Below are positions 22,758 to 51,953 of a stretch of DNA of 64,000 nt, in pieces. How positions within the stretch are numbered: position 1 is the stretch's first letter; the number at the start of each line of letters is the position of its first letter. Where the stretch lies: positions 1,706 through 65,705 of the forward strand of contig JBBDXQ010000108.1 in assembly GCA_040902265.1 (NCBI GenBank), given 5' to 3'. The notes below the pieces were generated by a model, which saw only the letters and a program-made list of their open reading frames with translations, was not told where the DNA came from and made no database searches. This DNA is from Anaerolineales bacterium. GTDB lineage: Bacteria > Chloroflexota > Anaerolineae > Anaerolineales > UBA11579. The position numbers and the translations under genes are program-made.

Positions 22758-22768
22758 GGAGACCCAAA

Positions 22769-26818: not shown

Positions 26819-26828
26819 CCCACCAAGC

Positions 26829-26834: not shown

Positions 26835-26843
26835 TTTCAATCC

Positions 26844-28429: not shown

Positions 28430-28455
28430 TGTTATAATTCAACTGTTGAATTATA
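28430..28455. promoter_or_regulatory. extended -10 (TGtTATAAT) embedded in a perfect 11-bp inverted repeat (TATAATTCAAC-t-GTTGAATTATA); candidate promoter/operator of the regulator gene
   Basis: Read directly: cttgtTATAATTCAACtGTTGAATTATAgag. It lies in the 36-nt gap between the membrane-protein gene and the wHTH gene. Confidence 0.5.
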
Positions 28456-28961
28456 GAGCCAGTGTGGATCCGAATATCGACACCTCCCGCGACATGCTCC
28501 TTTTGGAGCATATCGAAATCGATCCTGATGTAACACAGGCATCCCTCGCTGCGCTGTTGGGTATTGCCGTGGGCACGGTGAATTGGCACTTAAAACGCTT
28601 GGTGGCCAAAGGGTATGTGAAGGTAAAGCGAGCCCAGCGCCGCAAGTTACGCTATATCATCACGCCTCAAGGCCTCAGTCGCCGAGCCCGACTGACAGTG
28701 AATTATGTAGAGCATTCTATGCAGCTTTATCGCAAGACACGCCGACGAGTGGGCCAGTTGCTGGACGAAGTCAAAAGGGCCGGGTATCAGGGTGTGCACA
28801 TCGATAAACTCAACGGCGACCCCGAAGACATTGCAGATATCTGCAAATTGACCTGCCTTGAGCAGGGCATGCTCTTGTTGCCGGAGCAGGAACCCGGCCC
28901 AACTCTGCGAGTGCATGGCCACAAGGTGCAACTGGAATGGGAACCCATGCATGAGCGCTAA
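28446..28961 (+). CDS. MarR-type winged-helix regulator (EPS-locus-associated MarR subfamily)
   Basis: 171-aa ORF. 'LLLEHIEIDPDVTQASLAALLGIAVGTVNWHLKRLVAKGYVKVKRAQRRKLRYIITPQGLSRRARLT' matches my recollection of the EPS-associated MarR pattern (HTH, then a wing with ..KL.Y.LTP.G). Start is uncertain: TTG 28446, GTG 28464 or ATG 28494. Confidence 0.65.
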   Translation: MNYRASVDPNIDTSRDMLLLEHIEIDPDVTQASLAALLGIAVGTVNWHLKRLVAKGYVKVKRAQRRKLRYIITPQGLSRRARLTVNYVEHSMQLYRKTRRRVGQLLDEVKRAGYQGVHIDKLNGDPEDIADICKLTCLEQGMLLLPEQEPGPTLRVHGHKVQLEWEPMHER

Positions 28962-29988
28962 AAAGACAGGCAAACCGTCCGAAAGAGAGCACATTCTTAT
29001 CACCGGGGGAGCCGGTTATATCGGCTCCCTGCTGGCCGGCGAATTATTGAGGGCGGGCTACCGCGTAACCGTTCTCGACAAGCTCCTATTTGGCGGCGAC
29101 TCGTTGGTGAATTACCTGGCGGACCCCAATTTTTACTTTGCCAAAGTGGATGTCTGGGAGCCGCGGGCTTTGCGCGAAGTGTTCAAGGGCCAGAATCGGG
29201 CTCCAGACGCGGTGGTGCACCTGGCGGCTATTGTCGGGTTCCCCGCCTGCCAGGCAGTCGGCCGCCCCGTGGCGTGGCGTTACAACGTGGAAGCCACCCA
29301 GCACGTGTTCGAACAGGCCGAAGAACTGGGGACGAAGCGGTTCGTTTTCGCATCGACCTACAGCACGTATGGGCACTCTCAAAATGGTCATGTGGTCACC
29401 GAAGATTCACCACTCAATCCTCATTCTCTGTACGCCGAAACAAAAATTGCAGCCGAGGAAGCATTGCTCGGCCAAAAGAACGCTAACTGCGTTTCGCTGA
29501 TTTTCCGCCTGGCAACCTTATATGGCATTTCTCCGCGAACCCGTTTTGATCTGATCGTGAACCAATTTGTATTGGATGCGTACACAAAGCGAGAGCTGCT
29601 TATCTATCAGCGCGGCTATTCGCGCTCCTTCGTGCATGTGCGTGATGTGGTGGCCGGTTTTATATTGGGTTTGGAAGCTTCCGAAGCGAAAGTGCGCGGC
29701 CAGATCTTCAATTTGGGTACTGAGAAGGGCAACTACAGTAAAGATAAGATCGTCGAATTTGTGCTCAAGCGGCTGCCTGAAACTATGGTGCGCTATAAGG
29801 ACCTGACTTTTGGTGGCGACATGCGTGACATTAGCGTGTCGTTCGATAAGATAAGCCGCGAGCTTGGCTATAAGACTCAATTTAATGTTGATGATGGCGT
29901 GCGCGAAGTTCTGCACGCATTGCAAGAGGGGTTGATCAAGAATCCACAGGATGAACGATTTCGCAACGCCCAATTCATAGTCCGGTAG
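28951..29988 (+). CDS. NAD-dependent sugar-nucleotide epimerase/dehydratase (extended SDR)
   Basis: ATG 28951 ('MSAKKTGKPSEREHILITGGAGYIGS'). The track ORF's N-terminal 31 codons overlap the regulator gene and look non-coding. Catalytic 'ASTYSTYG...SLYAETKIAAE' (S...YxxxK). Confidence 0.8.
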   Translation: MSAKKTGKPSEREHILITGGAGYIGSLLAGELLRAGYRVTVLDKLLFGGDSLVNYLADPNFYFAKVDVWEPRALREVFKGQNRAPDAVVHLAAIVGFPACQAVGRPVAWRYNVEATQHVFEQAEELGTKRFVFASTYSTYGHSQNGHVVTEDSPLNPHSLYAETKIAAEEALLGQKNANCVSLIFRLATLYGISPRTRFDLIVNQFVLDAYTKRELLIYQRGYSRSFVHVRDVVAGFILGLEASEAKVRGQIFNLGTEKGNYSKDKIVEFVLKRLPETMVRYKDLTFGGDMRDISVSFDKISRELGYKTQFNVDDGVREVLHALQEGLIKNPQDERFRNAQFIVR

Positions 29989-30954
29989 GTGATGATGGTT
30001 GAGAACCAGTATTGGAATGGTAAACGAGTGACGGTAACCGGCGGGGGAGGCTTTCTGGGCTCTTTTATCGTCGAAAATTTGCGCGCCAGAGGTGCGAAGG
30101 AGATCTTCGTGCCACGTCGCAGGGATTATGACCTGGTGCAGACGGGCGAGATCAGCCGAATGCTGGACGCAGCTAACGCTGACGTGATCATTCATGCGGC
30201 TGCCCTGGCAGGTGGTATCGGCGTCAACCGGGAGCGACCGGCTGATTTTTTCTACACTAACTTGATGATGGGCGCTCCTTTGATGCACCAAGCATGGGAA
30301 CGCGGCGTGAAGAAGTTTGTCGCCCTCGGGACCATTTGCTCGTATCCCAAGTTCGCTCCAATACCATTTCGTGAAGAAGACCTTTGGGAAGGCTACCCGG
30401 AAGAGACCAATGCTCCTTACGGCCTGGCCAAAAAAATGCTGCTGGTGCAGGCCCAGGCTTATCGCCAGCAATATGGCTTCAATGCCATCTTCCTTTTACC
30501 AGTTAACCTCTACGGGCCTCGTGACAATTTTGACTTGGAAACGTCGCATGTGATTCCGGCTCTCATCCACAAATTTATTGAAGCTGAAGAACGGAAGGAT
30601 AAGCAGGTAGAACTTTGGGGCGATGGATCGCCAACCCGCGAATTCCTCTATGTGGAAGACGCCGCTGAGGGGGTGGTATTGGCCGCCGAACGCTTTGAAG
30701 GTAGTGAACCGGTAAACCTTGGGTCTGGCCGCGAGATCAGCATTAAAGACCTGGCTGAGATGATTGCTCGCCTTATCGGTTACGAAGGCGAGTTTGTTTG
30801 GAATACAGATAAGCCTAACGGCCAACCACGCCGCTTACTGGATGTGAGTCGCGCAGAGTCCTTCTTCGGATTCCGCGCGGGCACGGACTTCGAAGAAGGA
30901 TTGCGTAAAACCATCGAGTGGTATCGCCAGCATCGGAAAGTTGCCATCAAATGA
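29989..30954 (+). CDS. fcl: GDP-L-fucose synthase family (GDP-4-keto-6-deoxymannose 3,5-epimerase/4-reductase)
   Basis: 321-aa ORF, collinear with E. coli Fcl/WcaG as I recall it: '[12 protein letters not shown]', '[11 protein letters not shown]', '[26 protein letters not shown]', '[15 protein letters not shown]', '[14 protein letters not shown]'. Confidence 0.85.
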
Positions 30955-31817
30955 TCGATAGCAAAGCCTTGGCCGCGAAAGTAGAAGCGCCTACTGTGCT
31001 TATCAAACCGCAGCGCGGCTTGGTGGGTCTCGATTTACGTGAGCTGTTTCGCTTCCGTGAACTGATCTTTTTCCTCACCTGGCGGGATATTTTGGTGCGT
31101 TACAAGCAGACTTTGCTTGGCGGTACCTGGGCGATCGTGCAACCACTATTGCAAATGCTTATATTTAATGTGTTATTTGGTGACATTGCCGGGTTATCCA
31201 GCGGCGGCATCCCGCGTCCACTGTTTACCTATTCCGCCCTGCTTCCCTGGAACCTGTTCTCTACCGCTATTGGTGAAGCCGGACGTTCTCTGGTAACCAA
31301 TCGCAGTATGATCACCAAAGTCTACTTCCCGCGCGTGGTGGTGCCCCTGTCTTCGGTGCTTAGCGGCGTGGTGGACTTTGCGGTGGCTTTCGTCGTGCTG
31401 GCTGGGATGATGCTTTATTTCGGCGTCATGCCTACATCGGGGATTTGGGGCTTGCCATTTTATTTGTTGCTTTCGTTGGTAACCGCCCTGGGTGTAGGTC
31501 TTTGGCTCGCGGCGTTGAATGTGCATTACCGCGATGTGCGTCACATCATCCCCTTTCTAACCCAGTTCTGGATGCTCGCCACCCCTATTGCTTATGAAGC
31601 CAGCGAGATCTTTGAGCGCTTGCCGCAAGGACTTGAATGGCTTTATGCGTTAAATCCCATGGTGGGTGTGGTTGAAGGCTTTCGCAATGCCCTGGTGGGT
31701 ACACCGATCTTCTCTGCCGGTATGTTGTGGATCTCACTGATCACTTCATTCGTACTGCTTCTCACCGGTCTGATTTATTTCCGCCGAATGGAACGCACCT
31801 TTGCGGATGTCGTATAG
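30951..31817 (+). CDS. wzm: ABC-2-type polysaccharide export permease
   Basis: ATG 30951 forms an ATGA overlap with fcl. '[36 protein letters not shown]' is the ABC-2 signature start. Six hydrophobic segments. Confidence 0.8.
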
Positions 31818-31818
31818 C

Positions 31819-33102
31819 ATGAGCGAATACGCAATCAACGTCGAGGGGTTGGGCAAACGCTATCGCTTGGGTGGCAAGGTGGAGCGCTACCGCACATTGC
31901 GCGACTCGCTCAGCAGCGCGTTTTCATGGCCTGCGCGCATGTTAAAAGGCGAGCTGCGCCGAGGCGCGGAGACCATCTGGGCGTTGCGGGATATCTCTTT
32001 CCAAGTGCGCCAGGGGCAAGTGCTGGGTGTGATCGGTCGCAATGGCGCGGGAAAAAGCACGCTGTTGAAGATCCTCTCGCGGGTCACTGAACCCACCACT
32101 GGCTTTGCTGAAATCCATGGTCGGGTTGGGTCTTTGCTCGAAGTCGGCACAGGCTTCCACCCCGAATTAACCGGACGTGAAAATATTTACTTGAATGGCG
32201 CAGTTTTGGGAATGAAGCGCCGAGAAATTGCTGGCAAGTTCGATGAGATCGTGGATTTTTCCGGGGTTGCAAAATTCATCGATACAGCTGTGAAACATTA
32301 TTCCAGTGGCATGTACCTGCGCCTGGCATTTTCGGTAGCCGCCCACCTGGAGCCCGAGATACTAGTCGTGGATGAAGTACTGGCGGTCGGTGATGCTGAG
32401 TTCCAGCGCAAATGCCTTGGCAAGATGAGCGATGTGGCCGAGGCTGGCCGCACCGTGCTTTTTGTCAGCCACAACATGTCGGCTATATTACGCCTCACGG
32501 AAGAGTCGATCGTTTTGGAAAAAGGGGAGTTGGTTTTTCGAGCACCCACACGCCAGGCGGTTGACCACTATATGGCCTCCGGTCTTTCGCAGAGTGGCGA
32601 ACGGATTTGGCAGGCAAATGAAATACCTACTGACGCTGCCCCCTTTAAACCATTAGCCTTGCGCGTGCGCGATACCCAGGGAAGGGTGGTAGAAACAGTC
32701 CAGTCCCGCCAGCCGCTGGAAATTGAGATTGAATACGAAGTAGACAAACCGATTCAGGGATTGCGAGTAGGCGTTTATTTACAAACTATGCGCGGCGAAA
32801 CTGTGCTCACTTCGTTCGATACGGACGAGCCAGTCCAATATGAAAAATACGCCACGCGGCCTGCTGGCCGCTACCTCAGCCGCGCTGAAATACCCGCTGA
32901 CTTCCTTAACGAAGGACAGTACGTGCTTGGATTGAACGCGTCCTCCTTCCGTGTGCGTCGTTATTTTCAGGAAGAACGCGCCTTGGCGTTCGTGGTGGAT
33001 GCCATGGGAGCGCCTGGCATGCAATGGCCGGAACCACGTCAAGGGTTCGTTCGACCGAGGCTTGATTGGCGTATTGAACAAGTCCAAAGAGTCAAAGCTT
33101 AA
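31819..33102 (+). CDS. wzt: polysaccharide-export ABC ATPase with a C-terminal glycan-binding-type domain
   Basis: Walker A 'GRNGAGKSTLLKIL', signature 'YSSGMYLRLAFSVA', Walker B 'ILVVDEVLAVGD'. A further ~180 aa are beta-rich ('PLEIEIEYEVDKPIQGLRVGVYL...GQYVLGLNA'), like Wzt C-terminal carbohydrate-binding domains. Start is 31819, with 31801 or 31807 as alternatives. Confidence 0.85.
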   Translation: MSEYAINVEGLGKRYRLGGKVERYRTLRDSLSSAFSWPARMLKGELRRGAETIWALRDISFQVRQGQVLGVIGRNGAGKSTLLKILSRVTEPTTGFAEIHGRVGSLLEVGTGFHPELTGRENIYLNGAVLGMKRREIAGKFDEIVDFSGVAKFIDTAVKHYSSGMYLRLAFSVAAHLEPEILVVDEVLAVGDAEFQRKCLGKMSDVAEAGRTVLFVSHNMSAILRLTEESIVLEKGELVFRAPTRQAVDHYMASGLSQSGERIWQANEIPTDAAPFKPLALRVRDTQGRVVETVQSRQPLEIEIEYEVDKPIQGLRVGVYLQTMRGETVLTSFDTDEPVQYEKYATRPAGRYLSRAEIPADFLNEGQYVLGLNASSFRVRRYFQEERALAFVVDAMGAPGMQWPEPRQGFVRPRLDWRIEQVQRVKA

Positions 33103-33103
33103 G

Positions 33104-34693
33104 ATGCTGGCCGGGACAAGGATTAAACGTGTATTGGGCGAAGTGCCGCTGGCTGCCGAGCTGGACTGGGCGTTGCGTGGCCGCGGGGCACCGGTGGACG
33201 GTTTCAAGTTGGAGGAATTAAAGGCCTCTTTGCCTAACTGGTGCCGGCAAGTTAAAGACTCGCCTTTGCGCGACCAAAAGGGTTGCAAGGCGTTGGTATA
33301 TGCCACTCTCCACTATTGGATTAACCACGCTGCTCTGCTTTCCCTGGCGTTGGTAGGACAGGGTCATGAAACCACCCTGGCTTATTCGCCCTACGCTAAC
33401 TGGAAGAAGGCGATTACCAAGTTTGACCTGCGGCAGCGTGACGCTTACGCGCGCAAGGTGCTGAAACCGGCTGAGGAACTTATTAGTATTAAATCATTTT
33501 TGGCACCTGCCGATCGGCCTCTGCCCAGTTCACTGGCCGATGCGATCGAATCCGTGTCGATCATGGATGCGCAATACACCCTTCAAGTGGAGGAAGTGGA
33601 CAAGGGTAGTAACTTGTTTCAGCTCCGCCTGGAACGCAACAAAGCTGCTGCGGCTGCTGCCTTGACTTGGCTGCAGGCTGAAAGCCCGGACGTAGTCATC
33701 TTGCCCAATGGGCTGATCCTGGAATTTGGCGCGGTATTCTATGCAGCCCGCCACCTCAACATCCCGGTTGTCAGTTACGAATTCGGCGAGCAGCACGACC
33801 GTATTTGGCTTGCTCGAAATACCTCTGTTATGCATCAGGAGACTGAGGTCCTCTGGCGGGCAAAACAGGATGCGACCTTTGGCACGGAGCAACGTGCCCA
33901 GGTGCAGAAGTTATTCACCAGCCGTCAGGCAGCTGGGCTCTTCGGCTCGTTCTATCGCCGTTGGCAGAACCTTCCGGCTGAGGGTGCCGATGTGGTACGC
34001 TCTAAGTTGGGTTTAGACCACCGCCCGGTGGTCTTGCTGGCAGCCAATGTGATCGGTGATAGCCTTACGTTGGGGCGCGCTTCCTTCACAGGCGATATGA
34101 GTACCTGGCTGCAGCGCACGCTGGTCTTTTTCGCCGAACGCAAGGACGTGCAGTTCGTGCTGCGCGTCCATCCTGGAGAGCGCAACTTGCAAGGCCCTTC
34201 GGTGGCCGAGCTCGTTCACCAAGTGCTTGCTGAATTGCCCAACCACTTCCATGTGGTTGCAGCTGAGGATTCGATCAATACCTACGACTTAATTGCACTA
34301 GCTGACCTCGGCCTGGTCTACACCACCACAGTAGGTTTAGAAATGGCGATGAGCGGTTTGCCCGTCATCGTTGCAGGCCGAACCCACTACCGTGGCAAAG
34401 GTTTTACACTTGACCCCGCAAACTGGGAAGATTACTTTTCGGGACTGGAAGAAGCTCTACAGGATTTAGCAGCGGCAAAACTAAACCCGCACCAGATCGA
34501 CACAGCCTGGAGTTACGCCTACCGTTTCTTCTTCGATTATCCTCAACCCTTCCCCTGGCACCTATTGCATTTCTGGAAGGATGTTGAAACAACACCGTTA
34601 AGTAGCGTATTTTCGGAGCTGGGACAAAGCCAATTTGTTCGCACGTTTGATTATTTAGTGGGTCGCCCTTTCCCCTGGGAGAATCTGCAATGA
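33104..34693 (+). CDS. GT-B-like protein, capsule-synthesis (KpsC/KpsS, GT107-like) layout; paralogue of 54937-56526
   Basis: ATG 33104 lies 1 nt after the wzt stop; the track ORF's 51 upstream codons overlap wzt. 'VVLLAANVIGDSLT', 'VQFVLRVHPGE', 'LIALADLGLVYTTTVGLEMAMSGLPVIVAGRTHY' are collinear with 'VPVFTNVIFDTSQ', 'LFVIRAHPDE', 'LIQRAHFVMVYNSSIGLEASIMNKPVLCAGAARY' in the 54937 ORF. Confidence 0.5.
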   Translation: MLAGTRIKRVLGEVPLAAELDWALRGRGAPVDGFKLEELKASLPNWCRQVKDSPLRDQKGCKALVYATLHYWINHAALLSLALVGQGHETTLAYSPYANWKKAITKFDLRQRDAYARKVLKPAEELISIKSFLAPADRPLPSSLADAIESVSIMDAQYTLQVEEVDKGSNLFQLRLERNKAAAAAALTWLQAESPDVVILPNGLILEFGAVFYAARHLNIPVVSYEFGEQHDRIWLARNTSVMHQETEVLWRAKQDATFGTEQRAQVQKLFTSRQAAGLFGSFYRRWQNLPAEGADVVRSKLGLDHRPVVLLAANVIGDSLTLGRASFTGDMSTWLQRTLVFFAERKDVQFVLRVHPGERNLQGPSVAELVHQVLAELPNHFHVVAAEDSINTYDLIALADLGLVYTTTVGLEMAMSGLPVIVAGRTHYRGKGFTLDPANWEDYFSGLEEALQDLAAAKLNPHQIDTAWSYAYRFFFDYPQPFPWHLLHFWKDVETTPLSSVFSELGQSQFVRTFDYLVGRPFPWENLQ

Positions 34694-35550
34694 TCGACAG
34701 CGATCGCGATATCAAGCGACAGGTCCGTGAGTTTTATGATCGGGTTGGTTGGAAGGAGGTCTCCGAAGGTGTGTTCCAGAATGCGCGCTACGAAGACCTG
34801 CGTCCTGTTTCGCAGGAATATATCCATCGCTGCCACCAACGTGTGGCCCGCCACCTGGCTTCCAAAGGGCGCTTTTTTTTGGACGCTGGGTCGGGTCCCA
34901 TCCAGTATCCCGAATACATCGAATATTCAAAGGGGTACGATAAACGCGTATGTGCAGATGTTTCACACACCGCGCTGAAGGCTGCTCGCCAGCGCGTTGG
35001 TGACCATGGTTTGTTCGTCGTTGCTGATATTTCCAACTTACCTTTTTCCAGCGATGTCTTTGAGGGCATTGTCTCACTGCACACAATTCATCACTTGCCA
35101 CAAAACCAGCACGTGACAGCCTACGAGGAATTGCACAGAGTGTTGGCGAAGGGGTGCACCGCAGTGGTGGTCAATGGTTGGGATCATTCCCGCATGATGG
35201 GTTTTTTCAATCGCATCAAGCGTGTCATCCTGCGTACGCGCCATAGACGTTTTGGCCGAAAGCGCGGTATGTATGCCAACACAGCAGCTACCGCTTCACA
35301 GGAGGGGATTAAGGGAACATTCGTCGAGAAACACGATCCGGGCTGGTTAAAGCTGGCTCTGAACGGGCGCTTTGAGTATCGCGTCTTGGTCTGGCGCAGC
35401 GCCGGCACCAATTTCTTGCGCTTCTTTATTCGCGAGCGTTGGTTTGGTAGATATTTCCTGCGGTTACTCTTCCGACTGGAAGAACTCTTCCCACGATATT
35501 TTGGGGAAGTGGGCCGCTATCCCATGCTAGTGGTTACCAAGGCGAAATGA
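34690..35550 (+). CDS. class I SAM-dependent methyltransferase
   Basis: 286-aa ORF with an ATGA overlap. 'FFLDAGSGPIQYPEY', 'RVCADVSHTALKAARQR', 'FEGIVSLHTIHHL'. Confidence 0.7.
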   Translation: MIDSDRDIKRQVREFYDRVGWKEVSEGVFQNARYEDLRPVSQEYIHRCHQRVARHLASKGRFFLDAGSGPIQYPEYIEYSKGYDKRVCADVSHTALKAARQRVGDHGLFVVADISNLPFSSDVFEGIVSLHTIHHLPQNQHVTAYEELHRVLAKGCTAVVVNGWDHSRMMGFFNRIKRVILRTRHRRFGRKRGMYANTAATASQEGIKGTFVEKHDPGWLKLALNGRFEYRVLVWRSAGTNFLRFFIRERWFGRYFLRLLFRLEELFPRYFGEVGRYPMLVVTKAK

Positions 35551-36443
35551 ACCTGTTGGATTGGGAACTAAAAAGGAAGCGTGGTTTGGGCCACCTGTTC
35601 CGCAAAGCCACTTTGGCTCCTTGGCGGGCATGGCGGCGCTCCACCGCGTTCGCCCGCGCCCTTCCAAATTTCCTCATCATCGGAGCGCAGAAAGCTGGCA
35701 CCACCTCGCTTTACGGGTATTTGTCCCAGCATCACAATGTAATGTCACCCATGAAAAAAGAGATTCGTTACTTCGGCGAGAACTATTTCCAGGGTCCCAA
35801 TTGGTATCGGGCTCATTTTCCGTTCTCATTCAGGTTGGCTAATGGAAAAATGATTACCGGGGAATCTAGCCCTACGACCATTTTCCATCCGCTCGCCCAC
35901 GAGTGGGTGGCGGCTACAATACCCTCGGTTAAGCTGATCGCTTTGTTACGCGATCCAGTGGCGCGTGCTTTTTCTCATCACCAGATGAACTTGCGCTCGG
36001 GCCGCGATCAATTGCCTTTTGAGGTCGCCATCCAGAGAGAGGCCGAGCGGTTGGATGGCGCCTTGGAAGGCGTTCTAAATGGTGATGATGAAGCTGTGTT
36101 TCGCTATACCAGTTTCTCTTATTTGGCACGTGGGGACTATGAAACCCAACTGAAACGTTGGGTCCGCGTCTTTCCGAAAGAACAACTATTAATACTACAG
36201 AGTGAAGAATTATTTCAAAACCCTGCCCAGGCTTATCGTCGTGTCTTGGCCTTTCTTGGGCTTTCAATGATTGAATTACCAAGCTACGATGCGTTTAATC
36301 CTGGCCGATACGATGGGGAGATCCCACAAAAAAGCCGTAGTTTCCTGACGGAGTATTTTCGCGAGCCCAATCAACGCCTGGCCGAATTGCTGGGACAGGA
36401 TTTCAACTGGCAGCCCGCCGCCAGTCTTGTGGAGGTCTTATGA
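35547..36443 (+). CDS. PAPS-dependent sulfotransferase
   Basis: 298-aa ORF with an ATGA overlap. 5'-PSB loop 'FLIIGAQKAGTTSLYGYL', 'KEIRYF', and the 3'-PB region 'LIALLRDPVARAFSHHQM' give a carbohydrate-sulfotransferase-type layout. Confidence 0.85.
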   Translation: MNLLDWELKRKRGLGHLFRKATLAPWRAWRRSTAFARALPNFLIIGAQKAGTTSLYGYLSQHHNVMSPMKKEIRYFGENYFQGPNWYRAHFPFSFRLANGKMITGESSPTTIFHPLAHEWVAATIPSVKLIALLRDPVARAFSHHQMNLRSGRDQLPFEVAIQREAERLDGALEGVLNGDDEAVFRYTSFSYLARGDYETQLKRWVRVFPKEQLLILQSEELFQNPAQAYRRVLAFLGLSMIELPSYDAFNPGRYDGEIPQKSRSFLTEYFREPNQRLAELLGQDFNWQPAASLVEVL

Positions 36444-37447
36444 ATTGGAAAGAACAGGTTGTGCTCGTTACCGGAGGAACAGGTTCTTTCGGCAGGGAAT
36501 GCATTCGCATCTTGTTGGATGAATACAAACCCTCAAAGGTGATTGTCTTCAGCCGTGACGAGCTGAAGCAGCATGAAATGCGCGCAATGGGGTTCGACCA
36601 AGTCAATCTGCGCTACTTTATCGGTGACGTTCGTGACCTTGGCCGTTTGAAGCGCGCTATGGTTGGGGTGGATGTGGTATTACATGCCGCCGCCCTCAAA
36701 CAGGTGCCGGCATGCGAATACAACCCGATGGAAGCCATCAAGACTAATATTCTCGGCACGGCCAATGTGATCGAAGCCGCACTGGAAGCTGGTGTCAGCA
36801 AGGTGTTGGCGCTCAGCACCGACAAGGCAGTCAGCCCCGTGAACCTGTATGGCGCCACCAAACTGGCAGCGGAGAAGCTGACTGTGCAAAGCAACGCGTA
36901 TTCTGGCGATCAGCCCACGCGCTTCAGCTGCGTACGTTATGGCAACGTTATTGGCAGCCGCGGCTCGGTGGTGCCCATCTTCCTGCGCCAACGCGAAAAC
37001 GGTAAATTGAATATTACCGACAAACGTATGACCCGCTTTTGGCTTTCACTCGATCAAGGTGTCCGATTTGTGCTCAACTGCGTCGAGGTCATGCATGGCG
37101 GGGAAGTGTTTGTGCCCAAGTTGCCCAGCACCTCGATCTTGGAACTTGCCAAAGTTATTGCTCCCCTGGCCGAACTGGAAGAGATCGGCATTCGCCCTGG
37201 GGAAAAACTACACGAGGTGTTGATCTCAGAGGACGAAGCGCGCACCGCCGTCGAATTGAAGGACATGTACGTGATCCAGCCGGCGCTGGGACCTTGGTTT
37301 GTGCGCTCCTGGGATCAGAAAGGCAAATCTCTGCCCGATGGTTTTTATTATGCTAGCAACGAAAACCCACAAAAGTTAAACCCGGCGGAAATACTAAAAA
37401 TGGTAGCTCCCTATGAAGCCGAATTAAAAGCAGGCAATCTGGCGTGA
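36440..37447 (+). CDS. pseB: UDP-N-acetylglucosamine 4,6-dehydratase (inverting), PseB type
   Basis: 335-aa ORF, collinear with Campylobacter/Helicobacter PseB: 'VLVTGGTGSFG', 'VFSRDELKQHEMR', 'YFIGDVRD', 'HAAALKQVPACEYNPMEAIKTNILGT', 'LSTDKAVSPVNLYGATKLAAEKL', 'RYGNVIGSRGSVVP', 'MTRFWLSL', 'HGGEVFVPKLPS'. Confidence 0.9.
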   Translation: MNWKEQVVLVTGGTGSFGRECIRILLDEYKPSKVIVFSRDELKQHEMRAMGFDQVNLRYFIGDVRDLGRLKRAMVGVDVVLHAAALKQVPACEYNPMEAIKTNILGTANVIEAALEAGVSKVLALSTDKAVSPVNLYGATKLAAEKLTVQSNAYSGDQPTRFSCVRYGNVIGSRGSVVPIFLRQRENGKLNITDKRMTRFWLSLDQGVRFVLNCVEVMHGGEVFVPKLPSTSILELAKVIAPLAELEEIGIRPGEKLHEVLISEDEARTAVELKDMYVIQPALGPWFVRSWDQKGKSLPDGFYYASNENPQKLNPAEILKMVAPYEAELKAGNLA

Positions 37448-38382
37448 CGCGCATTCTTATCACCGGAGCTAGCGGGTTGCTCGGTGTCAATTTGGCACTC
37501 GAAGCCGCAAAGCGTTATGAAGTCATTGGGTTGGTGAATACTCAGTCTTTGCACAACCCCGGTTTCCAGACCCTACACACTGATCTACTTGACCTCGAAT
37601 TAATTCCCATGTTAATCGAAGAGACTATGCCCGATTGGGTAATCAATTGTGCCGCGCTGACTGATTTGGACACTTGCGAGCGCCAGCCGGAACTAGCCAA
37701 GCGTCTTAACACTGAGCTGCCTGGCCGCTTGGCTGCAGAAACAGCCAGGCGCAACCTGCGTTTTCTACAGGTTTCGAGCGATGCAGTATTCGATGGTGTT
37801 AAAGGCGATTACCGCGAAGAGGATGCGCCCAATCCACTCAGTACCTACGGGCGCACTAAGCGACTCGCCGAGTTGGCTGTGAAGGCAGCCCACCCGCAGG
37901 TGCTGATAGTGCGCCCCAACATATTTGGCTGGAGCGTGAGCGGCACCCACAGCTTGGCCGAGTTCTTCTTCAACAACCTTTCGACCGGAAAACCGATACA
38001 AGGGTTTACCGATCGGCAATTCTGCCCATTGTGGGTCAACCATCTCGCTGCGATTATGCTTGAATTAATGGAGAAAAATACGCGCGGGTTATTCCACACA
38101 GTCAGTTCCGACGCACTGACCAAGTATGAGTTCGGCGTAGCTATTGCTAATCGGTTTGGCCTGGACGCCGCCATGATCAAACCTACCAGTTCGGAATCTG
38201 GTGATGCGCTGGCGCCTCGTGCCCTCAATTTGAACTTGAAGACCACAAACTTGACCAAAGAACTCGGCCGCCGGCCGCCTAGTGTTGCAGCTGGCATCGA
38301 AGGACTTTTCCAGCAATACGTTACTGGTCACCGCAAACAACTTCGGGCAATGGCGGGTTCACCCGAGGCGATGAAAGGCTAA
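37444..38382 (+). CDS. RmlD-like NAD(P)H-dependent 4-keto-sugar reductase (dTDP-4-dehydrorhamnose reductase family)
   Basis: 312-aa ORF. The GTG start overlaps the pseB stop. 'ILITGASGLLG', 'VINCAALTDLDTCE', 'FLQVSSDAVFDG..GDYREEDAPNPLSTYGRTKRLAE' (S...YxxxK). Confidence 0.75.
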   Translation: MTRILITGASGLLGVNLALEAAKRYEVIGLVNTQSLHNPGFQTLHTDLLDLELIPMLIEETMPDWVINCAALTDLDTCERQPELAKRLNTELPGRLAAETARRNLRFLQVSSDAVFDGVKGDYREEDAPNPLSTYGRTKRLAELAVKAAHPQVLIVRPNIFGWSVSGTHSLAEFFFNNLSTGKPIQGFTDRQFCPLWVNHLAAIMLELMEKNTRGLFHTVSSDALTKYEFGVAIANRFGLDAAMIKPTSSESGDALAPRALNLNLKTTNLTKELGRRPPSVAAGIEGLFQQYVTGHRKQLRAMAGSPEAMKG

Positions 38383-38384
38383 GC

Positions 38385-39449
38385 ATGCAGATCGATATCC
38401 AGGGTAGGCAAGTCGGTATAAAGCATCCGACCTACTTCATTGCCGATATTGCCGCCAATCATGACGGCGACCTTAAACGCGCCGTGGAACTGATCCGCCT
38501 GGCCAAGGTGGCTGGGGCTGATGCGGCCAAGTTTCAAAACTTCCGTGCTCCCAAGATCGTTTCGGATTACGGTTTCAAAGCGCTGGGCGACCAACTCTCA
38601 CACCAGGCCAAGTGGGAAAAAAGTGTTTACGAGGTGTATGAAGACGCTTCGATACCCTTCGAATGGACGCCCACTCTAAAAGAGGCCTGCGATGAGGTTG
38701 GTATCCATTATTTCTCTTCCCCCTACGATTATGAAGCCATCGAAATGCTCGATCATTACGTGGCAGCGTATAAGGCGGGGTCCAGCCTGATATCCTGGCC
38801 GCAAGCCATCGTGCGTATGGCGCGGTTTGGCAAACCTGTCCTGATCGCCACCGGCGACTCAGACATGCTAGACGTTGAACGCGTGATGGCCATGGTGCTG
38901 CCAGTAAATAAGGCAATAGTTCTGATGCAATGCAACACGAACTACACAGCCAGCGAAGGCAATTATGACCACTTGCATCTCAATGTGCTCACGACCTACG
39001 CAACCCGGTGGCCGGGTGTGATCCTGGGCCTTTCCGACCATACCCAAAGCCCAGCACCGGTGGTTGGCGCTGTGGCCTTGGGTGCTCGTGTGATCGAGCG
39101 CCACTTTACCGACAGCAACAGTCGTGAAGGCCCCGACCATAAATTCGCGCTCAACCCGGATAATTGGGCGCACATGGTGGAGGAAGTTCGCATCTTGGAG
39201 CGCTCGCTTGGCTCCTCAGAAAAATTTGTGGCCGAGAATGAAAAAGAGACCTATATCGTCCAACGCCATTGCTTGCGGGCATCCCGGATGGTGAAGGCTG
39301 GGGAAATATTCACCGAAGATATGCTTGAAGTTTTACGGCCGGCTACCCCCGGCGCAATAATGGCCTGGGAGCTATCCCGGGTCCTGGGCAAAAAAGCGAT
39401 GACCGATCTCCCATTTGGTAAGGAACTTCGTTGGGAAGATTTAGACTAA
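38385..39449 (+). CDS. NeuB/PseI/LegI-family nonulosonic-acid synthase with a C-terminal SAF domain
   Basis: 354-aa ORF. 'PTYFIADIAANHDGDLKRAVELIRLAKVAGADAAKFQNF', 'GLSDHT', 'VIERHFT'. C-terminal 'RASRMVKAGEIFTEDMLEVLRP' is SAF/antifreeze-like. Confidence 0.85.
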   Translation: MQIDIQGRQVGIKHPTYFIADIAANHDGDLKRAVELIRLAKVAGADAAKFQNFRAPKIVSDYGFKALGDQLSHQAKWEKSVYEVYEDASIPFEWTPTLKEACDEVGIHYFSSPYDYEAIEMLDHYVAAYKAGSSLISWPQAIVRMARFGKPVLIATGDSDMLDVERVMAMVLPVNKAIVLMQCNTNYTASEGNYDHLHLNVLTTYATRWPGVILGLSDHTQSPAPVVGAVALGARVIERHFTDSNSREGPDHKFALNPDNWAHMVEEVRILERSLGSSEKFVAENEKETYIVQRHCLRASRMVKAGEIFTEDMLEVLRPATPGAIMAWELSRVLGKKAMTDLPFGKELRWEDLD

Positions 39450-39462
39450 CCCTGCCAGCCAA

Positions 39463-40530
39463 ATGAAAATTCTGTATTTCAGTCGCAGCTATACTCCGCA
39501 CGATTTTCGTTTCCTCTCGGCAATCGTTGAAGGCGGCCATCGCGCTTTTTTCCTGCGATCTCAGCATAGTAACTCTTCGCGTATTCCCCCATTACCCAAA
39601 GGCACCGAGGAGGTGGCGTGGTCTGGATTTCTCGAGCCGGTGATCGCGCAAGTAAAACCCGACCTGGTGCACGCTGGGCCGGTGCCGTCCTGCGGCTACT
39701 TGGCTGCCAGAAGCGGGTTCCACCCGCTCGTGCTCATGTCCTGGGGCTCAGACCTTTTGTGGGAGGCGCGCCGGAACCCATTTGTTCGTCTGCGGGCTAA
39801 GTATGCCCTGCCGCGCGCAGACGTTGTCATTGGGGATTGTGACGCAATGCGTAGAGTCGCGATGGATTATGGTGCACACTCCAGTCGTATAGCCGTTTTC
39901 CCATGGGGAGTTGACCTCAAGAGCTTCAATCCCAAGGGTGGCGACGGGGGTTGGCGCGCCCGCCTTGGCTGGCAGCAGAACGTTGTTCTATTACATTTGA
40001 GAACATGGGAACCGCTCTACGATCCCCTCACCGTTGCCAGGGCTTTTGCGCGCGCCGCCCGCCAAGAGCCGCGCCTGCGCCTACTAATGCCCGGCGCTGG
40101 CAGCCTGGCTGGCAAAATTACCAAAGTTTTTGAACAACACCAGGTTTTGGACCGCGTGCATTTTCCAGGCCAGCTAAATCACGACGAGCTTCCGCAGATC
40201 TTCCGGGCGGCTGATCTGTACCTTAGCGCTTCCCTAAGCGACGGTTCCTCTGTCTCTCTGATGGAAGCCTTAGCAAGCGGCCTGCCAGCCTTGGTTTCTG
40301 ATATTCTCGGAAACCGCGAATGGGTGCAGCCTGGTAAAGAAGGCTGGCTCTTCCTCGCAAAGGATGATGTCGTGCTGGCGGACCATATCCTGCGCTCAGT
40401 AGCCCAACCCGATCAGCTTAAGCTTATGGGCGGGTTGGCGCGAAAAACTGCAGAAACTCGCGCCGATTGGGCTCAAAACAAGCAGGCGTTATATAGTGCC
40501 TACCATCTAGCTCTTGAGACAGCAGGCTAG
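39463..40530 (+). CDS. glycosyltransferase, GT4-like
   Basis: 355-aa ORF. 'LSASLSDGSSVSLMEALASGLPALVSDILGNREWVQPGKEGWL'. Confidence 0.75.
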   Translation: MKILYFSRSYTPHDFRFLSAIVEGGHRAFFLRSQHSNSSRIPPLPKGTEEVAWSGFLEPVIAQVKPDLVHAGPVPSCGYLAARSGFHPLVLMSWGSDLLWEARRNPFVRLRAKYALPRADVVIGDCDAMRRVAMDYGAHSSRIAVFPWGVDLKSFNPKGGDGGWRARLGWQQNVVLLHLRTWEPLYDPLTVARAFARAARQEPRLRLLMPGAGSLAGKITKVFEQHQVLDRVHFPGQLNHDELPQIFRAADLYLSASLSDGSSVSLMEALASGLPALVSDILGNREWVQPGKEGWLFLAKDDVVLADHILRSVAQPDQLKLMGGLARKTAETRADWAQNKQALYSAYHLALETAG

Positions 40531-40531
40531 C

Positions 40532-41290
40532 ATGGTGTCCCGAGTGGTTGCCATAATCCAGGCCCGCATGGCATCCAGCCGCCTACCGGGCAAAGTACTG
40601 GCCGATCTGGGCGGCCAGCCCATGCTGGCTTGGGTGGTGCGCCGCGCTAGCCGTGCAAAAGGAATTGACCAGGTGGTAGTGGCCACCTCCATTGCTGCTG
40701 AAGACGATGCAGTGGTTGCCTTTTGCAAAGAACAGGACTATGCCTGTTCTCGCGGCAGCCTTTACGATGTGCTTGACCGCTTTCGGCAAGCTGCCCAGGA
40801 ATTCGATGCTGAAGTCATCGTGCGCCTAACAGGTGACTGCCCGCTGATTGATCCCGGCATGCTCGCTGATAATTTAAACACCTTCCTTAGCGCACAGCCC
40901 CCCTTGGATTTTGCTGCTAATCGTTTGCCGAGTGATCGGACCATCCCCATCGGGTTGGATGCAGAATTCTGCACCATGGCCGCTCTGGAAACTGCCTGGC
41001 GTGAAGCGCAGAAGGAGCATCAGCGTGAGCATGTGATGCCGTTCTTTTACGAGAACGCCGACCGTTTCCGTACCCTCCACATTAAGCACCACCCGAATGT
41101 CGGCAATTATCGCTGGACTGTTGATACGCCCGAAGACCTTGAACTTATGCGCAAAGTTGTCACTTATTTTTCGGACGATACATTTTCGTGGCAACAAGTC
41201 TTGGCCCTGTTTTATCAGCATCCTGACCTTGCCAGGATAAATGCTTCGGTAATGCATAAGAGCCAATACGACGTAGATGAACGCCAATGA
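40532..41290 (+). CDS. cytidylyltransferase of the SpsF/PseF (CTP_transf_3) type: CMP-ulosonic acid synthetase candidate
   Basis: ATG 40532 lies 1 nt after the upstream stop. 'VVAIIQARMASSRLPGKVLADLGGQPMLAWVVRR', 'VVVATS', 'VIVRLTGDCPLIDP'. Confidence 0.75.
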   Translation: MVSRVVAIIQARMASSRLPGKVLADLGGQPMLAWVVRRASRAKGIDQVVVATSIAAEDDAVVAFCKEQDYACSRGSLYDVLDRFRQAAQEFDAEVIVRLTGDCPLIDPGMLADNLNTFLSAQPPLDFAANRLPSDRTIPIGLDAEFCTMAALETAWREAQKEHQREHVMPFFYENADRFRTLHIKHHPNVGNYRWTVDTPEDLELMRKVVTYFSDDTFSWQQVLALFYQHPDLARINASVMHKSQYDVDERQ

Positions 41291-43170: not shown

Positions 43171-44606
43171 TGGCTAAGCATCGCATTTTCATTAGCGCAG
43201 ATCATGGTCTGGCGATAGTATATTTTCTGCAAAGCGACGTACTTACTACTTTACTTGTAGATGATGTAGAAGTTGTGCTGCTCACCGACGACGCCCTTGC
43301 CGATCACATCCGCGAGCGATTTGGCCGGCCAGGCCTGACTATTGAGGGCCTTCGTTTATCGAAGGCCCAGGATTATTTCAAACAGGTTTCCCCTTCGCGC
43401 CAGTGGTGGCTGGATTTCTTGCGTCGTGCCGGTGCCTCCAACCAAATCAACCTCGAGGCAGTGGAAAGCTATGTCTCCCAGGTGAAAGCGGAAGCCAACC
43501 CCCGCCGCAAGCTGTTCTTCCCCTTGATGCAACTAGTGGTGGCCGTGTTGCGCCGCTCGCGCCAGGCGCGGTCGGCTTTGCTGGGTGCCCAGATGCGCTT
43601 CACTCCTAACCTCTACGCAGATCTCTTCGAAAAGTATCAGCCCGGCCTGGTAGTAGCCAGCACACCTGGCTGGCGTTTTGATCGATACCTTCTGCGTGAA
43701 GCCAATGCTCGCAATATCCCCACCGCTTCGGTAATTGTCGGTTGGGATAACAGCAGCAGTTATAGCTTGCCGGGCGCTCCCGTGGATTGGGTCACTTGCT
43801 GGTCGCAGATCCAAAAAGAAGAGCTGGAACATGGTTCCGACTGGTCTGCAGAGCGTGTCAATATCGGCGGTATCCCCATTTACGATGGCTATTTCAAAAA
43901 TGAATGGGTATTGTCCCGCGACCAATATTTCAAACAACATGGCCTGGACCCTAACCGGAAATTGATCTCATACGCCAGTAGCTTTATCACCTTTTCTCCC
44001 AATATTCAAAATATAGAAGCGCTTGCCGAATTAGTTTCCAGTAACAAACTAGCCGCGCCTAGCCAATTGCTGGTGCGTTTGCACCCCAACCATTTTATGG
44101 ATGTGCATCGCTTTGCTGCCGAGCGCGAAAAGATCCGCACCTTGGCCGAAAAGCTGCCACATGTTAACGTCGTCGAACCTGTGCCCCTAGGAGGCTCTTT
44201 GGGCTATTATTCGGGCGAGGACATGCCCGAGAAATCTTCGATGATGGCTTATTCTGATGTGTTTGTCACTGTCTATTCCACCATGGTGGTGGAAGCCGCT
44301 GTTCACCAGCGGCCGGTGGTGAGCGCTTGCATTGATTCAATTGTGGGGTGGCCTGGGAAATTCACCATACCGCTTTCACGCATCGGCGATTGGCCTACTC
44401 ATTCTCGTTTCCGCAATTCGGGAGCCGGCCGTGTCGTCTATACCAAGGCGGAGTTAGCAGACACCATAAATTTTTATCTGATCAATCCGCAAGCCGGGAA
44501 GGAAGAGCGCCGCGCTTTCATTGAGCGCGAATGTACTTTCACGGAGGGCAGCGCTGGCCGGCGCACCGGTGAATATCTGCTCTCCCGAATAGGGAAACGC
44601 GCATGA
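43170..44606 (+). CDS. GT-B-like polysaccharide biosynthesis protein of unknown specificity (distantly similar layout to 33104/54937)
   Basis: ATG 43170 shares 1 nt with the upstream TGA; the track ORF's 67 upstream codons overlap the GT2 gene. 'LISYASSF', 'LLVRLHPNHF', 'MAYSDVFVTVYSTMVVEAAVHQRPVVSA'. Confidence 0.45.
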   Translation: MAKHRIFISADHGLAIVYFLQSDVLTTLLVDDVEVVLLTDDALADHIRERFGRPGLTIEGLRLSKAQDYFKQVSPSRQWWLDFLRRAGASNQINLEAVESYVSQVKAEANPRRKLFFPLMQLVVAVLRRSRQARSALLGAQMRFTPNLYADLFEKYQPGLVVASTPGWRFDRYLLREANARNIPTASVIVGWDNSSSYSLPGAPVDWVTCWSQIQKEELEHGSDWSAERVNIGGIPIYDGYFKNEWVLSRDQYFKQHGLDPNRKLISYASSFITFSPNIQNIEALAELVSSNKLAAPSQLLVRLHPNHFMDVHRFAAEREKIRTLAEKLPHVNVVEPVPLGGSLGYYSGEDMPEKSSMMAYSDVFVTVYSTMVVEAAVHQRPVVSACIDSIVGWPGKFTIPLSRIGDWPTHSRFRNSGAGRVVYTKAELADTINFYLINPQAGKEERRAFIERECTFTEGSAGRRTGEYLLSRIGKRA

Positions 44607-45625
44607 GCAGCCGCCTTTGGCGGGCCTGGCGCTTGCTATTCAGTGGTCAGCTGGACCCCAGCGGCCAGCGCCAGATACCACCGATCAATAGCGAAGACTT
44701 GGCGGAGATCAAGCAATTCTTCCCCATGCCGAAATTCTTCATCTTTGGCCATGCTCGCTCAGGCACCACGCTATTGGCCCGCCTGATCCGCTTGCACCCC
44801 GATGTGCATTGCAATTGGCAGGCCCATTTTTTTACACGCCAGCCATTGCTAAGTGGAATGCTGGCAAGCTCAAAATTCGAAGCTTGGCTCTCACGCCCCA
44901 GCAACCGCTGGAACCGCGGCCGTGATTTGTCGCCGGTGGCTCTGCGTGCCATGAGTGACTACATCCTTGAGCGTGATGCAGTGCGCGAGGGAAAATCTGT
45001 GGTTGGGGACAAGAGCCCTAATGTTCTACTTGGAGGCCAGGCTGTTCGCGAAGCGCACCGCATTTATCCAGACGCTGCGTTGATCTACATCGTCCGTGAT
45101 GGCCGCGATACGTTGATCTCCCATCGTTTCCAGAATTTTATTGACGGGGCTCAGTTCCTTGCGCGCGCTGATTTGAAATTGCGCGATTCATTTGCCAGTA
45201 ATCCGGAACCCTTCTTTTCGGGCAAACGCTCTGTGTTCACCCCCCAGATACTTAAGAAAATGGCAAAGAGCTGGGCAGAAAACGTATCTGATACCGATCG
45301 ACTTGGACACCAACTTTATAGTGAACGCTATTTTTCGCTTCGTTACGAAGACCTTGTGGCACGTCCCTATGACATGTTGTCAAAAGTGTGGACCTTTCTC
45401 GGTGTGAACCCGGATACACTGGAGCCGCGCGTCAATCAGGAAATGGCTCAGAATCCTGATGCCGACTGGCAGAACAAAAAAGCTCCCGATCTGGCCGCAG
45501 CCTTGGAAAAGGGTAAGCGCGGTTCGTGGAAGCAGTTGTTCACCGAAGACGATAAGAGACTATTTAAAAAAGTCGCCGGAGACCAGTTGGTCACCTGGGG
45601 TTACGAGCAAAACCAGGATTGGTGA
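44603..45625 (+). CDS. sulfotransferase-family protein
   Basis: 340-aa ORF with an ATGA overlap. P-loop-like PSB 'FFIFGHARSGTTLLARLIRLHPDV', 'LIYIVRDGRDTLISHRF', 'LRYEDLV', C-terminal 'KGKRGSWKQLFT'. Confidence 0.75.
   Translation: MSSRLWRAWRLLFSGQLDPSGQRQIPPINSEDLAEIKQFFPMPKFFIFGHARSGTTLLARLIRLHPDVHCNWQAHFFTRQPLLSGMLASSKFEAWLSRPSNRWNRGRDLSPVALRAMSDYILERDAVREGKSVVGDKSPNVLLGGQAVREAHRIYPDAALIYIVRDGRDTLISHRFQNFIDGAQFLARADLKLRDSFASNPEPFFSGKRSVFTPQILKKMAKSWAENVSDTDRLGHQLYSERYFSLRYEDLVARPYDMLSKVWTFLGVNPDTLEPRVNQEMAQNPDADWQNKKAPDLAAALEKGKRGSWKQLFTEDDKRLFKKVAGDQLVTWGYEQNQDW

Positions 45626-50195: not shown

Positions 50196-51953
<1,758 letters not shown>

Follow-up and report, generated by a model that had tools for sequence, protein, structure and literature searches.

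Cap-gated export of glycans, which combines a chain terminator with a carbohydrate-binding domain (CBD) on the transporter ATPase Wzt, has been found in a few systems of proteobacteria, Aquifex and Geobacillus. [quoted passage not shown] Here, we examine a candidate system of this kind in the Chloroflexota, found in a 64,000-nucleotide stretch of DNA from an Anaerolineales bacterium (lineage UBA11579; assembly GCA_040902265.1, contig JBBDXQ010000108.1, forward-strand positions 1,706 to 65,705), hereafter the window. In it, the genes of a Wzm-Wzt ATP-binding cassette (ABC) transporter are followed by genes for a KpsC/KpsS-like glycosyltransferase, which we call CS1, a methyltransferase (MT) and a sulfotransferase (ST1). 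Our reading, to which we give a probability of about one half, is that CS1 adds a nonulosonic acid (NulO) cap, that the CBD of Wzt reads this cap, and that its recognition gates export by Wzm-Wzt.

The scheme of polymerase, terminator and CBD has been described in Escherichia coli O8/O9a, Klebsiella O12/O4/O7 and Aquifex (PMC11231755, PMC9445017). In the WbbB (GT99) system of Klebsiella pneumoniae O12/Raoultella terrigena, a modified GT-B enzyme that depends on a CMP-activated ulosonic acid is encoded with a CBD-bearing Wzt, and once the ulosonic acid (beta-Kdo) is in place at the non-reducing end, the chain is no longer elongated and is cleared for export (PMC11231755, PMC12887879). Known terminators also carry a coiled-coil molecular ruler (PMC11231755). 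In Aquifex aeolicus, the cap is made by a methyltransferase and recognized between the CBD and the nucleotide-binding domain (NBD), with Wzt binding 3-O-methyl-mannose/rhamnose (PMC9445017). The retaining beta-Kdo transferases KpsC/KpsS (GT107) work instead with CMP-beta-Kdo and KpsMTED on a poly-Kdo linker. KpsS1 of Acinetobacter baumannii (GT118) and the pseudaminic acid (Pse)/legionaminic acid (Leg) transferases Tanf_01245/BFO_1060 of Tannerella forsythia are encoded beside CMP-NulO synthesis genes and add terminal NulO (PMC12887879, PMC5420450), as was shown genetically for the Pse/Leg-derivative transferases of T. forsythia (PMC5420450). The Anaerolineales module matches the logic of polymerase, terminator and CBD, but it is fixed across a Chloroflexota order rather than serotype-variable, its candidate terminator is a stand-alone KpsC/KpsS-like protein without a coiled-coil ruler, and in place of Kdo, methyl or methyl-phosphate its cap is probably a NulO.

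A Wzt-CS1 module conserved across the Anaerolineales

The module consists of the following features.

30951..31817, + strand: Wzm, ABC-2 permease (PF01061 ABC2_membrane, 76.6 bits)
31819..33102, + strand: Wzt, ABC ATPase of 427 amino acids (aa) with a C-terminal CBD (PF00005 ABC_tran and PF14524)
32602..33099, + strand: Wzt_C-type beta-sandwich domain, about residues 262-427 of Wzt (all-beta in AlphaFold2; conserved over 82 orthologs)
33104..34693, + strand: CS1, KpsC/KpsS-like GT-B protein, putative CMP-nonulosonic-acid transferase and candidate chain terminator (PF05159, AlphaFold2, Foldseek, motifs)
34690..35550, + strand: MT, class I S-adenosylmethionine (SAM) methyltransferase, near-constant partner of CS1 (PF08241 Methyltransf_11)
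35547..36443, + strand: ST1, carbohydrate sulfotransferase of the 3'-phosphoadenosine-5'-phosphosulfate (PAPS) type, an accessory insertion between MT and PseB (PF00685)

A note made earlier from the sequence alone (the original prediction) had listed these five genes (30951-36443), all of which are present on the + strand with products that Pfam confirms, and had read them as a candidate chain-termination and export-coupling module whose cap could be methylated and/or sulfated. The export-coupling module and the ulosonic-acid transferase stand, and the sulfated cap does not (see "Sulfation"). The three genes after wzt had each been described as joined by a stop/start overlap. This is true of CS1/MT and MT/ST1, which, like ST1 and the next gene, share 4-nt ATGA overlaps, whereas wzt and CS1 are separated by a 1-nt spacer (TAA 33100-33102, ATG 33104); the tight coupling itself is real.

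We compared the window with 80 species-representative loci, all from metagenome-assembled genomes of Anaerolineales, Anaerolineae or Chloroflexota, and with seven loci from protein look-ups, placing the window proteins on these loci by tblastn. A block of about 17 kb (28446-45625) is conserved in order in ~80 species-level Anaerolineales/Chloroflexota genomes (loci L001-L087), running MarR, two short-chain dehydrogenases/reductases (SDRs), Wzm, Wzt, CS1, MT, PseB, reductase, NeuB, GT4, cytidylyltransferase, an unknown 302-aa protein, GT2, a TagF-like protein and a second sulfotransferase (ST2), with Wzt identities of 64-91% across the loci. Such a block, fixed throughout the order, points to a core polymer of the envelope and not to an antigen that varies with serotype. 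The same Wzt-CS1-MT order is repeated in ~70 other species-level genomes, far more than chance could produce. In all 77 loci scored, Wzt is found upstream of CS1, and in 72 of them the two are directly adjacent. The region may well be the part in which a cell-envelope glycan is finished and exported, at the core of a large glycan gene island conserved across the Anaerolineales.

Synteny inside one order could be simple inheritance, so distant loci are the informative cases. On a contig of 34% GC (L127), a 64%-identical Wzt directly precedes a 40%-identical CS1 homolog, and a contig of 38% GC (L128) carries, in order, NeuB, MT, cytidylyltransferase, NTP-transferase, Wzm, Wzt with its Wzt_C domain, MT, CS, GT2 and Wzy_C. 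The Wzt-CS pairing therefore persists at 32-40% CS1 identity on contigs of 34-38% GC, and the CBDs of both loci keep R316, Y320, D334, D336, R347, W403, R407 and W417. The strongest argument at hand that CS1 may make what the CBD reads is that this CBD lineage travels so far in the company of a CS-type transferase, and an order-wide linkage that survives in distant low-GC relatives fits the chain-termination and export-coupling module first proposed.

The L128 module (Logan SRR14865928 contig, 800-12010), which comes from an unrelated low-GC organism, lies beside a WaaL-like ligase of the Wzy_C family and is thus apparently used for a ligase-dependent glycan, presumably lipopolysaccharide (LPS) or an S-layer glycan.

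The C-terminal domain of Wzt

The likeliest start of wzt is ATG 31819, which gives a protein of the same 427 aa as its orthologs. Searched by sequence against the Protein Data Bank (PDB), Wzt first retrieved full-length A. aeolicus Wzt (8dku, 7k2t; E 6e-66), in an alignment reaching well into the CBD, and TarH/TagH at E 1e-46 to 1e-48. An NBD of the Wzt/TagH type is therefore paired here with an ABC-2 permease. The Wzt_C profile PF14524 scores 34.2 bits in the window Wzt (cut-off 30.4) and is pre-annotated in nearly all of 120 Wzt orthologs. In an AlphaFold2 model built on 50 orthologs, residues ~262-423 are all-beta, with a predicted local distance difference test (pLDDT) mostly of 80-96, and the best Foldseek match was again full-length A. 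aeolicus Wzt (8dku, E 2.4e-36), covering ~398 columns, compared with ~250 columns for NBD-only structures. Because the modeled extension is all-beta and aligns to full-length Aquifex Wzt, it is a genuine Wzt_C-type CBD and is predicted to bind carbohydrate. The extension had been put at about 180 beta-rich residues; its beta fold, of the carbohydrate-binding beta-sandwich type in the model, is as predicted, and its length is closer to 165-175.

This domain is unusually conserved. Over 82 orthologs, mean column conservation is 0.73 in the CBD versus 0.83 in the NBD, and eight arginines are kept at a frequency of at least 90%, together with W264, W403, W417, Y320, D334 and D336. Aquifex Wzt is the closest solved homolog, CBD included, and three of its cap-pocket residues (taken from PMC9445017) could be aligned, namely I299, L300 and N313, which correspond to V319, Y320 and D336 in the window Wzt. 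These replacements point to a pocket region that is conserved in the clade yet chemically unlike the methyl-mannose pocket. From the eight conserved arginines, which set the Anaerolineales CBD further apart from that of Aquifex, and from the exchange of L300 and N313 for Y320 and D336, we infer an anionic ligand.

CS1, a KpsC-like GT-B protein

CS1 matches the Capsule_synth profile PF05159 with 27.3 bits (cut-off 20), over profile positions 133-275 only, which is the C-terminal half, and the same profile is matched by 53 of 60 CS1 family members at E<0.01. Its AlphaFold2 model is a two-Rossmann GT-B fold (pLDDT 93.3, predicted template-modeling score 0.91). Against the PDB, Foldseek ranks Thermosulfurimonas KpsC first (6mgb, E 8e-9), and target-normalized template-modeling (TM) scores are highest for KpsC entries (0.47-0.53), other GT-B folds reaching at most 0.38. 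The open reading frame at 33104 is thus the KpsC/KpsS-like GT-B protein that had been predicted, and its candidacy as an ulosonic-acid transferase holds up by its motifs. Invariant in 60 orthologs are N315-V-I-G-D319 (NxxxD), which lies in the C-terminal Rossmann domain on its first strand, and R354-x-H356-P357. In CS1, the former reads "VVLLAANVIGD319", with H356-P357 37 residues on; in KpsC-N, the nucleophile D160 lies in "IVLVVDQTFND160" (Q156-T-F-N-D160), ~32 residues ahead of "VKVHP" (PMC10148158). HMMER aligns H356-P357 to the VHP of KpsC, where the HP motif contacts the CMP phosphate. Since the invariant NxxxD and HP of CS1 correspond to the QxxxD and VHP of KpsC, CS1 appears to carry the Asp/HP catalytic signature of retaining CMP-ulosonic-acid transferases, with Asn replacing Gln.

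CS1 is best kept apart from the GT107 and BFO_1060 families. With KpsC/KpsS it shares a score above the Pfam gathering threshold, the best structural match, the HP motif and, in an alignment made by eye, an Asp that comes four residues behind a Gln or Asn at the end of what would be the same strand; it differs in its marginal sequence similarity, in having NxxxD rather than QxxxD, in a large unrelated N-terminal half, in its transporter partner and in the absence of a Kdo-linker context. A strict KpsC/KpsS-type Kdo transferase was considered and set aside because of the genomic context, as there are no Kps partners (no KpsM/T/E/D in the window) and the synthases nearby are of the NeuB rather than the KdsA type. 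Passing the Capsule_synth threshold is hence no ground for classing CS1 as GT107, since it has no Kps context and, to judge by the neighboring genes, no Kdo donor. Nor should it be placed in the Tannerella BFO_1060 family (NCBIfam NF046086, cut-off 200), where it scores 31.9 bits, far under the cut-off, as do its window paralog CS2 (37.8 bits) and the TagF-like protein (35.8 bits). KpsS1 and the Tannerella enzymes are likewise KpsS- or TagB-like GT-B proteins with an HP motif, and T. forsythia UB4 has a methyltransferase gene between the Leg locus and the transferase; these systems, however, serve Wzx/Wzy pathways or protein O-glycosylation, without a CBD-gated ABC transporter. In contrast to WbbB, which ranks only 31st in the Foldseek search, CS1 is a stand-alone protein of 529 aa without fused polymerase modules, its probable donor is a nine-carbon nonulosonic acid rather than Kdo, and its host is a member of the Chloroflexota rather than a proteobacterium with LPS. 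The family is very large and annotated only as "hypothetical", with more than 4,300 matches in 90% clusters and 4,208 cluster representatives at 50% identity.

The ulosonic acid that CS1 would add

Directly downstream of the module lie five genes whose families point to a nonulosonic-acid pathway and not to a Kdo pathway.

36440..37447, + strand: PseB, UDP-GlcNAc 4,6-dehydratase (inverting) (TIGR03589 466 bits, above the cut-off of 407.75)
37444..38382, + strand: RmlD-like 4-reductase (PF04321; TIGR01214 182 bits, below cut-off)
38385..39449, + strand: NeuB1, NeuB-family nonulosonic acid synthase (PF03102 205.7 bits; NeuB/PseI models below cut-off)
39463..40530, + strand: GT4-family protein within the NulO gene set (Pfam; position conserved)
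40514..41290, + strand: CMP-ulosonic-acid cytidylyltransferase, KdsB/PseF-like (PF02348 123.7 bits)

This set lies downstream of CS1 in 60 of 60 loci, and more distant members of the CS1 family also sit beside CMP-NulO biosynthesis genes. For example, homolog P0143 (33% identical; locus L126) is found inside a legionaminic-acid-like cluster of NeuB, Epimerase_2, CBS-NTP-transferase, dehydratase and DegT genes, while P0152 (32% identical), the CS of L128, adjoins NeuB and a cytidylyltransferase. CS2, a 529-aa paralog of CS1 at 22% identity, carries the motifs NVIFD and RAHP, that is, the same NxxxD and HP, and in the window directly follows a second synthase gene, NeuB2. Of the metagenome loci with CS2 (L088-L117, 45-75% identity), 19 reach far enough upstream to be scored, and 17 of these show the same adjacency. 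Given that NulO genes accompany the CS family in several contexts that are independent of one another, CS1 is probably a CMP-NulO transferase, and the ulosonic acid that it would add is most likely the NulO made by the genes directly downstream, and not Kdo.

Proposed mechanism and alternative readings

The gene identities, folds, motifs and synteny are directly established, and from them we infer a NulO donor, a terminal position for the added sugar, a target for methylation and binding by the CBD, as follows. A polyprenol-linked glycan would be built in the cytoplasm. CS1, as a retaining KpsC/KpsS/KpsS1-like GT-B enzyme, would take the CMP-activated nonulosonic acid made by the five downstream genes, and the adjacent SAM methyltransferase would modify the terminal residue, so that the probable cap is a NulO, possibly methylated. 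The Wzt_C domain would bind this anionic cap and thereby license the Wzm-Wzt transporter to export the finished chain. ST1 would put an extra sulfate somewhere on the glycan that is not required for recognition.

Several points weigh against this reading. Foldseek E-values barely set KpsC apart from generic GT-B folds. The sequence match between CS1 and KpsC is weak (E 0.06 against the PDB), though it spans the HP motif, and a profile of 60 CS1 orthologs searched against PDB sequences did no better than the single-sequence KpsC match and returned spurious beta-lactamase matches. The correspondence of NxxxD and QxxxD was made by eye, anchored on the HMMER-aligned intervening helix rather than on a structural superposition. 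The CS1 model has no long coiled coil, its longest helix being ~24 residues, and MT, the only other protein considered as carrier of a molecular ruler, is a 286-aa single domain with a basic tail. The arginines of the CBD are conserved as alignment columns and may or may not lie on the binding surface. The nearest solved Wzt, that of Aquifex, reads a methylated neutral sugar, and the neighboring MT alone could make such a cap. Finally, the pathway at 36440-41290 has no aminotransferase, no acetyltransferase and no recognizable PseG or NeuC, which leaves its product uncertain; a DegT aminotransferase gene lies far upstream of these genes, at 8403-9518.

Given PseB and a reductase without an aminotransferase, the cap may be a 7-hydroxy, pseudaminic-acid-like sugar: if the five genes form one pathway, their product would be a 5-acetamido-3,5,9-trideoxy (7-hydroxy) nonulosonic acid, of which we know no description. 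Alternatively, PseB and the reductase may make a separate 6-deoxy-HexNAc.

The main rival, which we retain although it is unlikely, is a methyl cap as in Aquifex aeolicus, E. coli O8 and Geobacillus S-layer glycans, in which MT would O-methylate a terminal neutral sugar, Wzt would read the methyl group and CS1 would add its NulO elsewhere, on a side branch, in the repeat unit or on the adaptor. Besides the ligand of Aquifex Wzt, this is favored by the GDP-6-deoxyhexose-type SDR genes directly upstream of wzm and by the constancy of MT, which directly follows CS1 in 70 of 75 species representatives and has a counterpart between Wzt and CS in L128. MT is, however, less constant than CS1. The L128 enzyme has no detectable homology to it, and no MT lies beside CS1 in L024, L075, L033, L049, L076 and L127; of these, L024 keeps a full-length CBD, the last four keep the Wzt-CS pairing, and L075 has no sequence upstream of CS1. 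This difference in constancy favors the CS1 product over the methyl group as the constant determinant, and the Arg-rich CBD with pocket-equivalent residues unlike those of the Aquifex methyl pocket also speaks against a methyl ligand. In the PDB, MT matches only generic class I methyltransferases, which give no hint of its substrate.

A second alternative, and a distinctly poorer one, takes the resemblance to KpsC further: like KpsS/KpsC, CS1 would build an ulosonic-acid primer or linker on a lipid acceptor at the reducing end, the polymer would be assembled on this primer, and the CBD would read something else. Its Capsule_synth membership, the KpsC structural match, the common HP motif and the NxxxD/QxxxD correspondence seen by eye are as expected for such an enzyme, but the transporter is of the CBD-bearing Wzm/Wzt type and not KpsMT, CS1 is a single catalytic module where KpsC is dual, and the strict Wzt-CS adjacency across very different genomes would be left unexplained. 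That CS1 is instead a polymerase making a NulO homopolymer or NulO-rich repeat, comparable to polysialyltransferases or to processive KpsC, which itself polymerizes Kdo (PMC10148158), and no single-addition terminator, is highly improbable: the conserved core does encode few other glycosyltransferases (GT4, GT2, the TagF-like protein and the unknown 302-aa protein), but the operon-like array to which it belongs encodes ~15 more glycosyltransferases and GT-C proteins upstream, and a CBD-bearing Wzt implies a distinct terminal signal.

Sulfation

In the original prediction, the cap read by Wzt could be a methylated and/or sulfated terminal ulosonic acid; in the sulfated version, ST1 would add the sulfate that the CBD reads. 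By homology, ST1 can be taken as a bona fide carbohydrate sulfotransferase, with 57.9 bits to PF00685 Sulfotransfer_1 (cut-off 22) and PDB matches to heparan-sulfate 3-OST/NDST (E 1e-20 to 1e-21) and to bacterial 3rnl (E 3e-25). Its gene is translationally coupled between MT and PseB and occupies the same slot in the close relatives L005, L006 and L007 (53-73% identity), which, with the window, are the only loci where it was found there when searching with ST1; a search of the single ST1 protein against genome contigs gave no matches, and these relatives came from a homologous-protein search. Moreover, L059 carries two different sulfotransferases between CS1 and MT (3465-5478), one of 352 aa and one of 286 aa with 41% identity to ST1, an independent acquisition next to the CS1/MT pair, and the conserved arginines of the CBD would suit a sulfate.

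Nevertheless, a sulfated cap read by Wzt is very unlikely. The slot between MT and PseB has no ST1-like gene in 74 of 75 species representatives (ST1 is there in one), ST1 is absent from L001-L004, and other genomes fill the slot with a Nudix protein, a GIY-YIG protein, a sensor or a reverse-strand membrane protein. The window CBD is 89% identical to those of the ST1-less loci L004/L008, as against 84% and 75% for the ST1-bearing L007 and L006, and a search for CBD columns specific to ST1-bearing loci found none. The domain therefore follows phylogeny and not the presence of ST1, and its conserved arginines are equally present in ST1-less genomes. Furthermore, the window holds four sulfotransferase genes and a PAPS synthase in one glycan island, so that sulfation looks like a general feature of the island rather than of the cap, and heavy sulfation of the island product is probable. 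Lying outside the conserved module, ST1 provides an additional decoration particular to its lineage, and the sulfated terminator, the original attraction of this locus, is probably not real. ST1 and ST2 were also considered as recent paralogs, which is ruled out by their 23% identity over the PAPS-binding region.

A comparable arrangement is found in the wb cluster of Aeromonas salmonicida A450, where a sulfotransferase-domain open reading frame lies between wzt and a wbbB of the Kdo-terminator type; no sulfate was found in the O-antigen (PMC4483657). Like ST1, the A450 protein has a sulfotransferase domain, but it is shorter (216 aa).

The surrounding glycan island

Glycan genes on the + strand fill nearly the whole window, from 76 to 46613 and then from 50196 onward. 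Outside the module and the NulO genes, the island includes the following features.

28446..28961, + strand: MarR/HTH_24 regulator, which opens the conserved block and has the same place in nearly all related loci (Pfam)
28951..29988, + strand: SDR sugar epimerase/dehydratase, GalE/GDP-Man-dehydratase-like (Pfam, NCBIfam below cut-offs; conserved synteny)
29989..30954, + strand: GDP-L-fucose-synthase-like SDR (NCBIfam NF047922 306.8 bits, cut-off 500), with an ATGA overlap with wzm
44603..45625, + strand: ST2, second sulfotransferase, conserved in closer relatives (Pfam)
50196..51953, + strand: bifunctional ATP sulfurylase/adenosine-5'-phosphosulfate kinase for PAPS supply (Pfam), the same neighbor in L002 and L089-L104
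51980..56526, + strand: second NulO set of SDR, cytidylyltransferase-HAD phosphatase fusion, NeuB2 and CS2 (CS2 at 54937-56526)
60542-61402 and 61396-62253: two further sulfotransferases

In the second NulO set, the cytidylyltransferase is fused to a KdsC/Kdn-9-P-phosphatase-like HAD domain, and NeuB2 is short. The genes after CS2 (56784-60539) encode a protein resembling the core of class II tRNA synthetases (below the Pfam cut-off), a GNAT protein, an aminoglycoside-3-N-acetyltransferase-like protein and a DUF4910/M28-like protein. In the metagenome loci, all of these are co-conserved with CS2, and they may decorate the second NulO, or an amino sugar, with N-acyl or aminoacyl groups. At the window edge, a third cytidylyltransferase of the CTP_transf_3 family (63234-63917) follows a GT2 gene (62263-63237), and the island runs past the window.

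Upstream of the conserved block, the stretch 14591-28409 encodes several membrane proteins of very large size (691, 883, 869 and 521 aa), of which two match PMT_2/GT-C, together with a radical-SAM protein (19327-20838) and a UDP-galactopyranose-mutase-like flavoprotein (22769-24190). This gene content recalls the way in which mycobacterial arabinogalactan is elaborated outside the cytoplasm.

The + strand island is interrupted by two tandem polytopic membrane proteins on the - strand, at 46615-48228 (537 aa) and 48218-49852 (544 aa), which have no Pfam match and both carry the motif "ALFDDAMISMQYA". In L023 (12413-14041), L077 (12703-14310) and L033 (11926-13557), homologs with 43-47% identity occupy the slot between MT and PseB, whereas in L098, L100 and L104 they are absent between the GFO and PAPS synthase genes. 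Possibly, these proteins form a GT-C-like family, as yet undescribed, whose genes change place within the cluster.

Biological significance

With its order-wide conservation and probable NulO cap, the system is a variation on the known scheme of cap-dependent ABC export, in which the position of the cap and its recognition by Wzt would follow the same logic. The fullest form of our reading is tentative, and it is doubtful that all of its parts hold at once: the Wzt CBD would read a NulO cap, maybe the undescribed 7-hydroxy pseudaminic-acid-like sugar, maybe O-methylated and in a few lineages sulfated, on an order-wide, heavily sulfated envelope glycan, and CS1 would represent a new glycosyltransferase family related to GT107, GT118 and GT99.

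Sialylated and sulfated polymers have been reported from the extracellular polymeric substances of granular sludge (PMC10483923), and the Anaerolineales would, if the reading is true, be a possible source of them. The order is abundant in the environment and in wastewater, and next to nothing is known of its envelope chemistry. The combination of Wzt CBD, CS1 and MT would offer a well-defined, testable module, and the large family of "hypothetical" proteins to which CS1 belongs would gain a function. Cap-gated export would then also use a nine-carbon, sialic-acid-like sugar, fixed across a whole Chloroflexota order, and CS1 would be the first NulO chain terminator, in the first cap-gated ABC export system described in this phylum.

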